DNA of 64,000 nt from Lama glama (Eukaryota): assembly GCA_028534125.1 (NCBI GenBank), contig CM052816.1, positions 310,001-374,000 of the forward strand, written 5' to 3'. This document shows positions 2,535 through 55,218 of the stretch, in pieces. The notes beneath the pieces are model-generated. The model ran no database searches. It had not been told where the DNA came from and saw only the letters and a list, made by a program, of their open reading frames with translations. Within the stretch, counting starts at the first letter, position 1. Every line of letters starts with the position of its first letter. The position numbers and the translations under genes are program-made.

Positions 2535-3535
2535 CCATATCTTCTTTATCCAGTCATCTGCTGGTGGGCATTTAGGCTGCTTTCTTATCCTGGCTATTGT
2601 AAATAATGCTGCTGTGAACATTGGGGTGCATGTATCTTTTCAAATTAGCACTTTTGTTTTCTTTGGGTATATACCCGGGAGTGGAATTGCTGGATTGTAT
2701 GGTGGTTCTATTTTTAGTTTTTTGAGAACCCCCCCATACTATTTTCCACAGTGGCTGCACTGACTTTCATTCCCACTATCCTTTTTCTCCACATCCTCAC
2801 CAACATTTGTTGTTTGTATTCTTTTTGATGACAGCCGTTCTGACGGGTGTGAGTTGGCATCTCATTGTGTTTTGATTTGCATTTTCCTGATGATTAGTGA
2901 TGCTGAGTGTCTTTTCATGTACTGGTTGGCCATCTGCATGTCCTCTTTGGAAAAATGTCTGTTCAGGTCTTCTGCCCATTTTTTAATTGGGTTATTATTT
3001 TTTTTAATGTTGAGTTGTATGAGCTGTTTGTATATTTTGGATATTAACCCCTTATTGATCATATCATTTGCAAATAAGTTCTCCTATCCTGCAGGCTGTC
3101 TTTTCATTTTGTTGATGGTTTCCTTTGACATGCAAAAGCTTTTAAGTTTAATTAAGTCCCATTTGTTTATTTTTGCTTCTATTTCCTTTGCCTTAGGAGA
3201 CAAATCCAAAGAAATATTGCCATGATTTATGTCAAAAAATGTTCTGCCTGTGTTTTCCTTTAGGGTTTTTATGCTTTCTGGTCTTACATTTAAGTCTTAA
3301 ATACATTTTGCATTTATTTTTGTGTACGGTGTCAGAGAATGTTCTAATTTCATGTTTTTACTTGTAGCTGTCTACTTTTCCCAGCACCAACTTTTGAAGA
3401 GACTGTCTTTTCTCTATTGTATGTTCTTGCCTCCTTAGTCATAGATTGATTGACCATAAGCATGTGAGCTTGTTTCTGGGATCTTCTATTCTATTCCATT
3501 GATCTACGTGTTTATTTTGGTGCTAATACCATACT

Positions 3536-3966
3536 TTTTTTTTTCTTGTTTTTGGACAAGAAAGTAGGATTTATTGGTGGGTGTGAGTAAGGAGAGAGCA
3601 ACACAAAGGCTGTCACGAGTGCAGGTCTGCCATTTTTCTAGGAGGCCATGATTAGAGATGTACTTGACCCCACAGCCATCTGGAAAGAGCTGCTTTTCTG
3701 CCACCATGTTTTCAAATTCATCTGCACTAAACTTAGTGAATCTCCACTTTCTGGTGATGTGGGTCTTCTCCAGGGAACTTGAACTTGACACTATGTAGGG
3801 CCCCAGTCACATGCTTCTTGTTCTGCGTCTTGGTGTGGGTGAACATGATGACTTGGCCAACGTAGACCCTGATCACTGTGTCCTGGGTTGTTCCAAAGGC
3901 ACCACAAATACCTATCTGGAGCCTAGACTGGAGACAGCATGCCAGACATGAATATCCACTGGGAAG
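3536..3966 (-). pseudogene. RPL10: Partially processed RPL10 (uL16) pseudogene fragment: 44 nt of intron, last two exons spliced, 3' UTR and poly(A)
   Basis: Minus-strand translation RLQIGICGAFG...KFKFPG and [35 protein letters not shown] matches the RPL10 C-terminal half, with frameshifts. Remnant TGA at 3613-3615, AATAAA at 3570-3575, A-tail ~3536-3553, intron acceptor CTAG|G at 3923/3922. Confidence 0.92.
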
Positions 3967-4099
3967 GGCTGTCAGCAAGGTCCCCTAAGGCAATTCATAC
4001 AAACAACATGCTGCATACACTACCAAAGAGGCTGCTGTTTGCAGCCATTGCACACCAGTCCCCCACAGGAAAAAGAGCAGTCGGCATAATTAGCTGCAG
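3967..4099 (-). ncRNA. SNORA70: SNORA70 (U70) H/ACA snoRNA retrocopy
   Basis: Reverse complement reads CTGCAGCTAATTATGCCGACTG...GCAATGGCTGCAAACAGCAGCCTCTTTGGTAGTGTATGCAGC...GGGACCTTGCTGACAGCC, colinear with SNORA70 as recalled. H box ACAGCA at 4038-4033; ACA box 3 nt from the 3' end. SNORA70 is hosted in an RPL10 intron. Confidence 0.88.
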
Positions 4100-4245
4100 A
4101 AATACCATACTGTTCTGATTACTGTAGCTTTGTAGTAGAGTTGAAGCCAGGGAGTGTGATTCCTCCAGCTCTGGTGTTCTTTCTCAAGATTGTTTTGGCT
4201 ATTTGTTTTTTGTGTGTGTGTTTCCATACAAATTTTAAAATTATT

Positions 4246-4745
4246 NNNNNNNNNNNNNNNNNNNNNNNNNNNNNNNNNNNNNNNNNNNNNNNNNNNNNNN
4301 NNNNNNNNNNNNNNNNNNNNNNNNNNNNNNNNNNNNNNNNNNNNNNNNNNNNNNNNNNNNNNNNNNNNNNNNNNNNNNNNNNNNNNNNNNNNNNNNNNNN
4401 NNNNNNNNNNNNNNNNNNNNNNNNNNNNNNNNNNNNNNNNNNNNNNNNNNNNNNNNNNNNNNNNNNNNNNNNNNNNNNNNNNNNNNNNNNNNNNNNNNNN
4501 NNNNNNNNNNNNNNNNNNNNNNNNNNNNNNNNNNNNNNNNNNNNNNNNNNNNNNNNNNNNNNNNNNNNNNNNNNNNNNNNNNNNNNNNNNNNNNNNNNNN
4601 NNNNNNNNNNNNNNNNNNNNNNNNNNNNNNNNNNNNNNNNNNNNNNNNNNNNNNNNNNNNNNNNNNNNNNNNNNNNNNNNNNNNNNNNNNNNNNNNNNNN
4701 NNNNNNNNNNNNNNNNNNNNNNNNNNNNNNNNNNNNNNNNNNNNN
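4246..4745. other. Assembly gap (500 N)
   Basis: Run of exactly 500 N. Confidence 1.
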
Positions 4746-5824
4746 TGAATGCACTGCCCCTGCCCCTCCCCATTCCCATCTTCAGTCTCCAAGGGAAGGA
4801 GGCAGACACTCACAGCAAGGGGGCGTGGGCAACCCCCCACCAGCTGCAGGATTTCCATTCTTTGCTCATTGATGATCACACCCCTTCAAGGGTTGAGGGG
4901 ACGTGGGAGGATCCCAGGAGAGGTGAGGTGTGCCCTGGCCCAGAGGTGCTGTATGTGGGACAGGCTCTGTGTACAAGGCTCCCCGTTGCGGGCAATGCTC
5001 AGCGAGGAGGTTTGAGCAGCTGTGCACACAGCATGCAGTGGATCCCAAATGCTTGGATGGGGGAAGTCACTGAGGGATGAGGATGGGGTGCAAAGGGGGC
5101 ACGTGGAGCAGAGGGCTCGGAGAGCCTGCTGGAGTGGAGAACCTGTGACCTCTGGTGTGCCTTAGTCAGAGAGAGGGGCAGGCCAAACGTGGGCACTTAC
5201 TATAAGCTTCCACGGCCAGGCCCTGTTAGGGTGCAGAGAATTGCCATTCTTTGGGTGAGACCAGGTAGACTGGAGGTTTAAGCCACAGGAAGCAACAGTG
5301 TGTGGGGAGGGGGACAGGACACCCGATGGTAGTTGGAGTGGCCCAGGAGGGACAGGGAAGGTCTTTGTGGTGAGACACAACATGGCAGATGCCACACAGG
5401 AGAAGGGCAAGCTTGGTGCTGGTGTTTTGGGACAGTTGCTCAGCTGGACCTTGAGTTTGGGGCAGTGGGCCTGGAGGAGGGAAGAGATGCTCTTGTCAGT
5501 TAAAAAGAGCCCATTATGGGAGGTGAGGCCAAACCCCAAACGCCCAGAAAGAGGCAAATTTACACTTGTGGACCACCGTACCATCTGGTGATGCTACCTG
5601 CAGGGATGGGGTGTGTGGGAGGAGATGAGACTGGGATGGGGCAGGGGGGCCACGTGGAGGCGTTCACCCTGCATTAAGCTGGGTTCTCCAGGCAGCCCTG
5701 GATGGGTGAAGTGACCAGGTGGGGCACAGGTGGGGGGGCTCTTGAGTGCACCCGGGTCTCATCCCCACTATGCCTTCCCCGCCACCCTACTTTGCAGGTT
5801 CCCCACCTCCCCCCTCCCACCACC

Positions 5825-6812
5825 ATGGATCACTCCTCGTTCAGTGGAGCGCCCCGCTTCCTAACCCGGCCCAAGGCCTTCGTGGTGTCGGTGGGCAAGG
5901 ACGCCACGCTGAGCTGCCAGATTGTGGGCAACCCGACGCCACAAGTGAGCTGGGAGAAGGACCAGCAGCCGGTGGAGGCTGGCGCTCGCTTCCGCCTGGC
6001 CCAGGACGGTGACCTGTACCGCCTCACCATCCTGGACCTGGCGCTGGGAGACAGCGGGCAGTACGTATGCCGCGCGCGCAACGCCATCGGCGAGGCCTTC
6101 GCGGCCGTCGGCCTGCAGGTGGATGCGGTGGCGGCGTGCGCCGAGCAGGCGCCGCACTTCCTGCTGCGGCCCACGTCCATCCGCGTGCGCGAGGGCGCCG
6201 AGGCCACGTTCCGCTGCCGCGTGCGGGGCTCGCCGCCTATGTCGGTGAGCTGGGCCAAGGACGGGCGGCGCCTGGGCGCGCCCGACGGCCCCCGCGTGCG
6301 CGTGGAGGCGAGCGGCGAGGCGAGCGCGCTGCGCATCCAGGCCGCGCGGCCGCGCGACGGCGGCACCTACACGGTTCACGCCGAGAACCCGCTGGGCGCC
6401 GCCAGCGCCGCCGCGGCGCTCACGGTGGATGCGGACGCCGATGCGGGCAGCCCACCGGGCGCCTCCACAGCCATGCTCCTGGCGCACCTGCAGCGGCGGC
6501 GCGAAGCCATGCGCGCAGAGGGCGCCCCGGCCTCGCCGCCGTCCAGGGCTGGCACACGCACCTGCACGGTGACCGAGGGCAAGCACGCACGCCTCAGCTG
6601 CTACGTGACGGGTGAGCCCAAGCCGGAGACGGTGTGGAAGAAGGATGGGCAGCTGGTGGCCGAGGGCCGGCGACACGTGGTATATGAGGATGCTCAGGAG
6701 AACTTTGTGCTCAAGATCCTCTTCTGCAAGCAGTCAGACTGTGGCCTCTACACCTGCACGGCGTCCAACCTCGTGGGCCAGACCTACAGCTCCGTGCTGG
6801 TTGTCGTTCGAG
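5825..6812 (+). CDS. OBSCN: Obscurin first coding exon (first three Ig domains); exon begins at 5798
   Basis: Acceptor TTTGCAG|G at 5797/5798; Kozak [54 protein letters not shown] matches the obscurin N-terminus. Donor AG|GTGAGC. Confidence 0.97.
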
Positions 6813-6850
6813 GTGAGCTCCTGGGGGCGGGCGCATGGTCCCCGCGCGCA
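5850..6850. promoter_or_regulatory. CpG-island-like segment over the first coding exon
   Basis: Very high GC and dense CpG (e.g. GCCGCGCGGCCGCGCGACGGCGG) compared with the flanks; judged by eye. Confidence 0.65.
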
Positions 6851-8015
6851 GTGAGCACAGGCAGGGGCCCCTCCCCAGGCCTTCCATGCTTTTCTTCTAG
6901 CGGCCGCTGCCATCTCCCCACCCTGTGTCTGTCTGGTAGAGGAATCTGTAGTTACGGGTCTCGGCAGCAGTTGCTTTTCTGGGTCCACAAAATGGGGGCG
7001 ATATGGGATGAGCCTCAGTCTGTTCCATTGTCTGTGAGAGTAACACGAGCATACGGCAAAGCACTATGTCACCAAAACCACTTACCCCGGGGAGGCAAGG
7101 TGCCCAATGGCTGAGCCTGCCCTGTCCAGGCTGAGGGTGACCCAGGCTCTCCACCCCTCCTACAGGATGCTAAGGGGGTCTCCCTGGCGGAGATGGAAGG
7201 AGAGCAGGAGCAGGGAGAAACCCCATACTGTTGGAGACCTCAGGCTGGGGCTGCATCAGGCTGCAGCCTGAAGGTGGTTCTGGGTCAGTCTGCAGGCTCC
7301 TGTCCAGGTCGGAGGCTCATCCAGGGCAGAGGCTCATCCAGGGCACCTGGGCAAGTGTAGGCAACACCACCAGAATTTCCTGGGGTGCCATTTAGTCTTG
7401 GTTCCCTAAGGCCAGCCTCTTGCTGTGGTTGGAGTCCCACTTCCACTTTTTACCAGCCTTAGGATCTCCAAAAGGGCCTTTCAGCCTCTGTGTGGGTCCC
7501 TCAGCGTCTTCATTTTTGCAGGGAAGTGCGCTCATGCAGTTGAGCGATTTCATGATTTCACAGGCTGGTACAGGTCCAGCGGCCTCACCCCTGTGAGCCT
7601 ACCGCATCCTGCCCATTAAGGGCCTGCTCAGTGGGGCTGCTTGCTGTGGCTTCACTGGCCTCATTTCTCTCTTTCTCTTCCAGAATTCTCCTTATATTTG
7701 GGAGAGGGGGCTCTTAAATTCTGTCCCCCCTCCCCTGTCCTCCCTCTTTTGCTACACCCTTAGCTCCCTCTGTTCCCCTCCCTGCAGCTCCTCTGCCTTC
7801 TCTCCCACCCACCTGCTGCCCCCGGAGCCCCTCCAACCCCTGTCCTGGCTCCCTGCTCCCACCCAAGTCTTACACCTCCCTTACCCTGCCCGCCTCCTTC
7901 CCCGTCACCCACCTCCCAGTCCCTCCCCACTTCCCTGTCTGCTCACTCTCCATCGCCTCTCCGGTCTGCCCCCTTCCCTCTCCCGGCCCCACTCACCTGT
8001 GCTCTTTTCCCGCAG

Positions 8016-24459: not shown

Positions 24460-24959
24460 NNNNNNNNNNNNNNNNNNNNNNNNNNNNNNNNNNNNNNNNN
24501 NNNNNNNNNNNNNNNNNNNNNNNNNNNNNNNNNNNNNNNNNNNNNNNNNNNNNNNNNNNNNNNNNNNNNNNNNNNNNNNNNNNNNNNNNNNNNNNNNNNN
24601 NNNNNNNNNNNNNNNNNNNNNNNNNNNNNNNNNNNNNNNNNNNNNNNNNNNNNNNNNNNNNNNNNNNNNNNNNNNNNNNNNNNNNNNNNNNNNNNNNNNN
24701 NNNNNNNNNNNNNNNNNNNNNNNNNNNNNNNNNNNNNNNNNNNNNNNNNNNNNNNNNNNNNNNNNNNNNNNNNNNNNNNNNNNNNNNNNNNNNNNNNNNN
24801 NNNNNNNNNNNNNNNNNNNNNNNNNNNNNNNNNNNNNNNNNNNNNNNNNNNNNNNNNNNNNNNNNNNNNNNNNNNNNNNNNNNNNNNNNNNNNNNNNNNN
24901 NNNNNNNNNNNNNNNNNNNNNNNNNNNNNNNNNNNNNNNNNNNNNNNNNNNNNNNNNNN
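24460..24959. other. Assembly gap (500 N) cutting the 5' part of exon A2
   Basis: Run of exactly 500 N ending inside an exon. Confidence 1.
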
Positions 24960-54718: not shown

Positions 54719-55218
54719 NNNNNNNNNNNNNNNNNNNNNNNNNNNNNNNNNNNNNNNNNNNNNNNNNNNNNNNNNNNNNNNNNNNNNNNNNNNNNNNNNN
54801 NNNNNNNNNNNNNNNNNNNNNNNNNNNNNNNNNNNNNNNNNNNNNNNNNNNNNNNNNNNNNNNNNNNNNNNNNNNNNNNNNNNNNNNNNNNNNNNNNNNN
54901 NNNNNNNNNNNNNNNNNNNNNNNNNNNNNNNNNNNNNNNNNNNNNNNNNNNNNNNNNNNNNNNNNNNNNNNNNNNNNNNNNNNNNNNNNNNNNNNNNNNN
55001 NNNNNNNNNNNNNNNNNNNNNNNNNNNNNNNNNNNNNNNNNNNNNNNNNNNNNNNNNNNNNNNNNNNNNNNNNNNNNNNNNNNNNNNNNNNNNNNNNNNN
55101 NNNNNNNNNNNNNNNNNNNNNNNNNNNNNNNNNNNNNNNNNNNNNNNNNNNNNNNNNNNNNNNNNNNNNNNNNNNNNNNNNNNNNNNNNNNNNNNNNNNN
55201 NNNNNNNNNNNNNNNNNN
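54719..55218. other. Assembly gap (500 N) at the start of array B
   Basis: Run of exactly 500 N. Confidence 1.

Follow-up and report, generated by a model that had tools for sequence, protein, structure and literature searches.

A SNORA70-headed, spliced and polyadenylated RPL10 retrocopy in the llama genome

The stretch of llama DNA considered here – 64,000 nucleotides of Lama glama, contig CM052816.1 of assembly GCA_028534125.1, positions 310,001 to 374,000, hereafter the window – carries on its minus strand, at 3525-4111, a retrocopy that joins a small nucleolar RNA (snoRNA), SNORA70 or U70, to the end of the gene that hosts it, RPL10. We have little doubt that this is a Type-3 U70/SNORA70 snoRNA retroposon (snoRT), made by the machinery of LINE-1 (long interspersed nuclear element 1, L1) from a fragment of RPL10 RNA. 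Its anatomy, its parent, an exact exon junction, the match at the cleavage site, a target-site duplication (TSD), a paralogous empty site and a 5′ start common to its relatives are all directly seen. The kind of element, the template proposed for it and the template RNA have each been published previously, and the window copy is a further decayed example; our addition consists of the census of a further genome and of a paralogous empty site for this copy. A first reading, made from the letters alone (the sequence-only reading), had interpreted the copy in the same way. The interpretation is upheld, but not its novelty: the exact architecture and its template are already described by Weber (2006, PLoS Genet 2:e205; PMC1687206).

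The retrocopy, its parent gene and its insertion site

Read along the minus strand, the insert lies between two copies of agtatggtatt, identical to each other, the 5′ TSD at 4101-4111 (preceded by ...atcagaac) and the 3′ TSD at 3525-3535. Its first base, a T at 4100, equals the base found in the parent gene at -1 from the start of the Rfam model. Then comes a full-length SNORA70, an H/ACA snoRNA starting with CTGCAG (3967-4099). Infernal matches this part to Rfam family RF00156 along positions 1-135 of the 135 of the model, scoring 122.5 bits (E 4.1e-25; the gathering score is 40), which bears out the identity first proposed for it; the insert extends at most one base beyond the model start, so that its edge does fall, as had been suspected, at the snoRNA's 5′ end. 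The terminal ACA and its three nucleotides persist; in the 3′ hairpin, two base pairs are non-standard or broken. The snoRNA is followed by the whole 44-nucleotide tail of the penultimate RPL10 intron, ending in ctag (3923-3966) and colinear with the parent. Here too the earlier assignment stands: 36 of the 44 positions are identical to the intron sequence that lies just 3′ of SNORA70 in the RPL10 gene of this genome.

The remainder of the insert is exonic. The penultimate RPL10 exon (3765-3922), recognized by blastn against the parent and by its translation, is decayed. Its frame, from 3921, reads LQIGICGAFG..., its counterpart in solved ribosomes being the stretch 111-166 of the 60S protein L10/uL16 (E about 6e-15); further on the frame is broken by stops and frameshifts, and a 5-nucleotide deletion lies just before the exon–exon junction. 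Pfam Ribosomal_L16 scores 20.4 bits on this frame, under the cut-off of 27.9, as is expected of a decayed piece of 62 residues. The last RPL10 exon (3553-3764), fused to the preceding one, aligns with positions 421-635 of the parent at 84% identity, and holds the remnant of a TGA (3613-3615) and an AATAAA (3570-3575). Homology to the parent, ending in ...cttgtcca, stops at 3553, which corresponds to the last base of the parent before the 3′ flanks diverge. An A-rich tail of 17 nucleotides, aaaacaagaaaaaaaaa, absent from the 3′ flank of the parent, occupies 3536-3552 and leads directly into the 3′ TSD. On direct reading, every position that the sequence-only reading had given, for the TSDs, SNORA70 and the intron tail, holds to the base. 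As a side observation, two tiny contigs of the assembly open with 54 bases (G000:C958749:1-54 and C828533:1-54) that match the initial 54 nucleotides of the window copy at 100% identity; this is probably assembly redundancy.

A genome search with the 565-bp insert as query returned 43 match rows. The parent is found at G000:C37:97545778-97546413, minus strand (locus L013), where the two halves of the query are split by extra sequence. Four additional exon blocks, lying upstream in this locus, are matched by ordinary RPL10 processed pseudogenes from other parts of the genome; we therefore recognize in the locus the intron-bearing RPL10 gene, which is X-like. Its SNORA70 (145.5 bits with the Rfam model) sits in the penultimate intron, the sequence upstream of it reading ...ctgttct|CTGCAG, and is followed by the 44-nucleotide intron tail (cctag), an exon, an 80-nucleotide GT...AG intron and a last exon with TGA, AATAAA and ...cctgtcca, past which nothing is related to the retrocopy. 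Counted from one base before the Rfam start (position 0), positions 0-332 of the parent align with the window copy at 81% identity, the last exon following as stated above. The junction at 3765|3764 reads AGAAG|ACCCACATC in the copy and AGAAG|gt...ag|ATCCACATC in the parent; the 80-nucleotide intron (positions 343-422) was therefore removed exactly, in agreement with the apparent splicing noted at the outset. Two details of the parent locus may be added. It holds one run of 500 N. And at 4407 (minus strand), model position 7 of SNORA70, it reads CTGCAGTC today, whereas CTGCAGCC stands there in the Rfam consensus and in 11 of 16 copies; the present base of the parent is common to the youngest copies, L004-L006, and the functional snoRNA thus seems to have changed recently at this position.

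The site of insertion can be reconstructed in the same genome. Both flanks, downstream (3250-3524) and upstream (4112-4245), lie on the minus strand, oriented like the insert, and belong to a single L1-like LINE copy, recognized by its paralogs and, for the downstream flank, by repeat copy number as well; a first look gave 3546 candidates for this repeat in the genome, and the 40 that were scored are 81-84% identical to it. An empty-site model, made by joining the two window flanks with one TSD copy removed, was aligned to 11 fetched paralogs. All 11 cross the insertion point gap-free in one alignment, at 80-85% identity, and carry the TSD motif a single time (as ACAGTATGGTAC in one of those aligned). 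The sequence-only reading had looked to outgroups for such a site; a paralogous one exists, in LINE copies of the llama itself. Another, older repeat copy within the window behaves alike, at 67% identity. In one paralog (L045), an open frame some 370 nucleotides upstream, on the same strand, matches RVT_1 at 51.5 bits, which makes the host a LINE in which the insert is sense-oriented downstream of the reverse transcriptase domain. Eight stop-free minus-strand frames around the insert were searched against Pfam and gave no family; the LINE identity rests, therefore, on copy number, on colinear paralogs and on the RVT_1 match of one paralog. We take this part of the host to be L1 ORF2. As for the TSD, its 11 bases are identical at 11 of 11 positions, and its score of 12, against a null maximum of 11, stands above all 240 of 240 cross-paired flanks of other copies.

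Sister copies, the common 5′ end and the template

The window copy is one of many. Genome-wide, the Rfam SNORA70 model finds at least 25 places over its cut-off (42 candidates scored), among them the parent and the window copy. The model matches, together with a decayed copy (L022), make up a set of 25 non-parent SNORA70 loci, and 22 of these (L001-L012, L014-L020, L022, L023 and L035) carry snoRNA, intron tail and RPL10 exon sequence. Twenty copies extend into the last exon, and from 19 of them the last intron of 80 nucleotides is absent. Three of the copies (L010, G000:C29:19839671; L012, C21:1449884; L020, C8:88117203) share both flanks, and the first two are 89.6% identical over 3.5 kb; they represent one insertion later duplicated as DNA, so that at most 20 independent events are at hand. 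Beside these snoRNA-headed copies we find eight RPL10 pseudogenes of messenger RNA (mRNA) type (L024-L031), with upstream exons joined on and neither snoRNA nor intron tail; some short fragments among the matches of the insert search were left out of these classes.

The window copy might have been made not from the gene but from an earlier, transcribed Type-3 master copy, its 5′ end being merely inherited. The bases that the copies share could be taken to speak for this secondary retroposition: at 20 columns, most of them agree on a base unlike that of today's parent, for example CTGCAGCC against CTGCAGTC. We aligned 17 near-full-length copies with the spliced parent. In Kimura two-parameter distance they lie 0.105 to 0.327 from the parent, with a median of 0.28 between copies, and the window copy, 0.197 from the parent, is farther from each of its 16 sisters (at least 0.234). 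The parent is likewise the nearest neighbour of 14 of the 17 copies, the exceptions being the duplicated pair L010/L012 and a near-tie, L011. The differences that the copies share are ordered in time: at several of these columns L004 and L005, the youngest copies, carry the present base of the parent. This is what one would expect of successive copies of a slowly changing parent, not of a burst from one master retrocopy. A master would, in addition, still need a 5′ end defined by the small nucleolar ribonucleoprotein (snoRNP) to restart at the same base. We consider this scenario quite improbable.

In 20 of the 25 loci, global alignment sets the limit of similarity to the parent at base 1 of the model, within -3..+2 nucleotides, and upstream of these 20 junctions the flanks show no relationship with the parent or with one another. 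Three further loci (L010, L022 and L035) have the same junction by eye, and the last two (L007 and L016) are decayed there and placed only by their full-length Infernal matches. A T at -1, as in the parent, is found in 13 of the 20 copies with a readable junction. Might the window copy be an ordinary 5′-truncated retrocopy of a full-length, intron-retaining RPL10 transcript, reverse transcription having stopped at the snoRNA 5′ end by chance? Full-length transcripts that retain the intron of RPL10-SNORA70 have in fact been reported from human cells (PMC12152556). Random ends would scatter, however, and they do not: in a sensitive blastn comparison of the parent intron (427 nucleotides upstream of the snoRNA) with 200-nucleotide upstream flanks, none of the 25 loci gave a match at E<0.01, the best (E 0.034) not being colinear. 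A reverse transcriptase stalled by the structured snoRNA would, besides, meet its 3′ side first. The sequence-only reading had already thought random truncation unlikely; with junctions that cluster and upstream intron in 0 of 25 loci it becomes untenable for the family, so that the template RNA itself must have ended there, and for the window copy we hold a chance stop to be very improbable. An upstream likeness of L004 and L035 to the parent intron, considered for a time, was discarded as not significant; in L004 the similar bases are those of the TSD.

Chimeric retrocopies with a small RNA at their 5′ end are known, and a template switch from the 3′ part of an RPL10 mRNA to free SNORA70 RNA, or else a partial duplication of RPL10 as DNA, has next to no chance of accounting for the window copy: the 44-nucleotide intron tail links snoRNA and exon exactly as in the gene, so that one continuous template suffices; a DNA duplication would have kept the 80-nucleotide intron, without an A-tail at the cleavage site and without TSD; and colinearity through the intron tail together with the spliced junction refutes both. 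A comparison of flanks showed none that the window copy shares with other Type-3 copies.

A Type-3 retroposon, copied from a spliced and polyadenylated RNA protected at its 5′ end by the snoRNP, as the sequence-only reading had proposed, finds support in the structure of the copy, in its match to the parent and in the 5′ start of the whole family. Following Weber (2006), the RPL10 pre-mRNA would be cut upstream of SNORA70, and the fragment then trimmed from 5′ to 3′ until the exonuclease is blocked by the assembled H/ACA snoRNP. The 3′ part of the same fragment would have its last intron spliced out, and undergo cleavage and polyadenylation at the normal site. Target-primed reverse transcription by the LINE-1 machinery would then copy this cap-less, snoRNA-headed RNA, beginning in the poly(A) tail and continuing all the way to the 5′ end – we infer this machinery because of the TSD, the A-tail and the class of the element – and in a heritable line of cells the copy would enter a LINE copy older than itself. 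It is this heritability that leads us to place the template RNA in the germline.

Several facts weigh against this account, and must be set beside it. In this species the evidence for the template RNA comes from its DNA copies. The TSD test is less generous to the other copies than to that of the window: 3 of 16 beat every null pairing, and 5 of 16 reach a null fraction <0.05. As the TSDs of the older sisters are thus mostly undemonstrable, their retroposition rests on spliced structure and A-tails. The endonuclease of L1 prefers TT|AAAA. The nick site of the window copy, gaac|agtatgg, is unlike this preference, at an old site where the boundary between TSD and A-tail is ambiguous by 1-2 nucleotides. 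Lastly, the divergence of the insert from its parent outside CpG sites, 0.153, is somewhat high when compared with the 15-20% that separates the host LINE from its best paralogs, and the expected order of ages, host before insert, is only roughly consistent with the data.

Not every locus follows the common plan, and the departures deserve mention in their own right. One copy (L023, G000:C24:46075023-46075527, minus strand) begins at the snoRNA 5′ end and yet is unspliced, being the only one to retain the 80-nucleotide intron. Another (L021, G000:C1:29016453-29016631, minus strand), 93.5% identical to the parent, has SNORA70 at 139.4 bits, the whole 44-nucleotide tail, one G and then A11: apparently a Type-2-like retrocopy with polyadenylation at the 3′ splice site. 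L033, which ends inside the intron tail, likewise resembles the Type 2 of Weber. In L034 (G000:C8:40320474-40320607, minus strand) a heavily decayed SNORA70 of 67.4 bits is followed by a longer, different, pyrimidine-rich tail and then, by eye, by sequence resembling the RPL10 exon; this may be a much older copy, from a time when the parent intron differed. Among the pseudogenes of mRNA type, finally, L031 (G000:C33:3359941-3360044 and upstream) is 96-99% identical to the parent exons, and far younger than any snoRNA-headed copy (93.5% at best, and about 90% for Type-3 copies).

Published relatives and template choice

Type-3 snoRTs were defined by Weber (2006), who found those of U70 particularly frequent. 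In the part of that work drawn upon here, they begin at the snoRNA's 5′ end, continue through the whole downstream segment of the intron into the processed last two exons, and carry a poly(A) tail at the site of the host gene together with a TSD. In all of this the window copy agrees with them, and we see no difference in kind; the counts given there are for human, rat, mouse, elephant and rabbit (PMC1687206). The location of U70 in the penultimate RPL10 intron extends from fishes to human, and it is to the same source that both the cleavage-and-trimming model and the template RNA are due (PMC1687206). Of the 42 human RPL10 processed pseudogenes counted there, 30 are Type-3 U70 snoRTs and 12 are exon-only, to be compared with 22 and 8 loci of the corresponding kinds in the llama; Type-3 U70 copies number two in rat, three in mouse, three in elephant and eight in rabbit, and they are reported to be absent from opossum and Xenopus (PMC1687206). 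The present genome thus repeats the human pattern: a common start, and Type-3-like copies outnumbering those of mRNA type found. Another survey made U70 the human H/ACA snoRNA with the most retrocopies, 21 in number (Luo and Li, NAR 35:559; PMC1802619). Human retrogenes of its U70m type have, like the window copy, host exon sequence in their 3′ flanks and the hallmarks of L1; some human copies are expressed snoRNA paralogs (PMC1802619), whereas the snoRNA part of the window copy shows no conservation.

The RNA itself has come to light more recently. A study of 2025, combining nanopore long reads and droplet PCR, shows that human cells contain 3′ fragments of host transcripts that bear poly(A); RPL10-SNORA70, whose 3′ fragments are polyadenylated, was chosen there as the H/ACA example (PMC12152556). 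Among the H/ACA snoRNA-retaining transcripts analysed, the median 5′ end of the long reads lies two bases upstream of the snoRNA. These 3′-snoRT RNAs are the RNA species that the retrocopy implies, and their ends, about two nucleotides upstream, agree with inserts starting at -1. They were seen in human somatic cells and in plasma (PMC12152556), whereas the llama offers a DNA fossil only, which points to their presence in the germline. Ordinary RPL10 processed pseudogenes used the same L1 route and the same poly(A) site, and differ in having upstream exons, without snoRNA or intron tail. SPA long non-coding RNAs and a fragment of NOP56-SNORD86 are further relatives of the 3′-snoRT RNAs.

Taken alone the window copy matters little, being one more fossil of a route described in 2006. 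As a set, the copies record snoRNA-headed, polyadenylated host-gene fragments in heritable cells over a long period, and they could offer natural data on the choice of templates by L1, which they might help to measure across mammals. We would venture, rather tentatively and with some inclination to doubt it, that the cap-less, snoRNP-headed, polyadenylated 3′ fragment of RPL10 could, per molecule, serve L1 far better as a template than does the much more abundant mature mRNA. If true, a general principle would govern how L1 chooses its templates, such as a bias towards poly(A) RNAs that are nuclear and untranslated.

Decay, age and neighbouring features

The differences between the window copy and its parent are spread evenly along the insert: 24 of 132 positions (0.182) in the snoRNA, 8 of 44 in the intron tail, 27 of 158 in the penultimate exon, 21 of 146 in the coding part of the last exon and 12 of 66 in the 3′ untranslated region. 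The snoRNA part is no more conserved than the rest (0.182 against 0.164 diverged, Fisher p 0.69), and a retained snoRNA function was rejected on account of this evenness. As judged from its substitutions, the window copy has decayed neutrally and is without detectable function; that it may still yield a processed small RNA would be the boldest reading of it. Divergence reaches 0.50 at CpG sites, to be compared with the non-CpG value given above. The mammalian neutral rate is near 2e-9 per site per year. With this rate, and a few percent deducted for change in the parent, the insertion would be some 50-90 million years old, with a wide error.

Two sisters, L014 (G000:C15:22264948-22265082) and L008 (G000:C12:65377005-65377139), score 153.6 and 150.2 bits with the Rfam model, above the 145.5 of the parent, and in L014 the snoRNA part has diverged by 0.104 and the remainder of the copy by 0.200 (Fisher p 0.013, without correction for 17 tests). 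Both may be conserved snoRNA paralogs, and as such may merit annotation.

Around the insert, the upstream flank is ended by the first of three runs of exactly 500 N in the window (4246-4745, 24460-24959 and 54719-55218), which lies 135 nucleotides from the 5′ TSD. The nearest coding exon found, at 5681-7114 on the plus strand and hence opposite to the retrocopy, consists of a stop-free frame of 477 residues with three immunoglobulin (Ig) I-set domains (Pfam, 232.6 bits), and looks like a large coding exon of a gene of the Ig superfamily.

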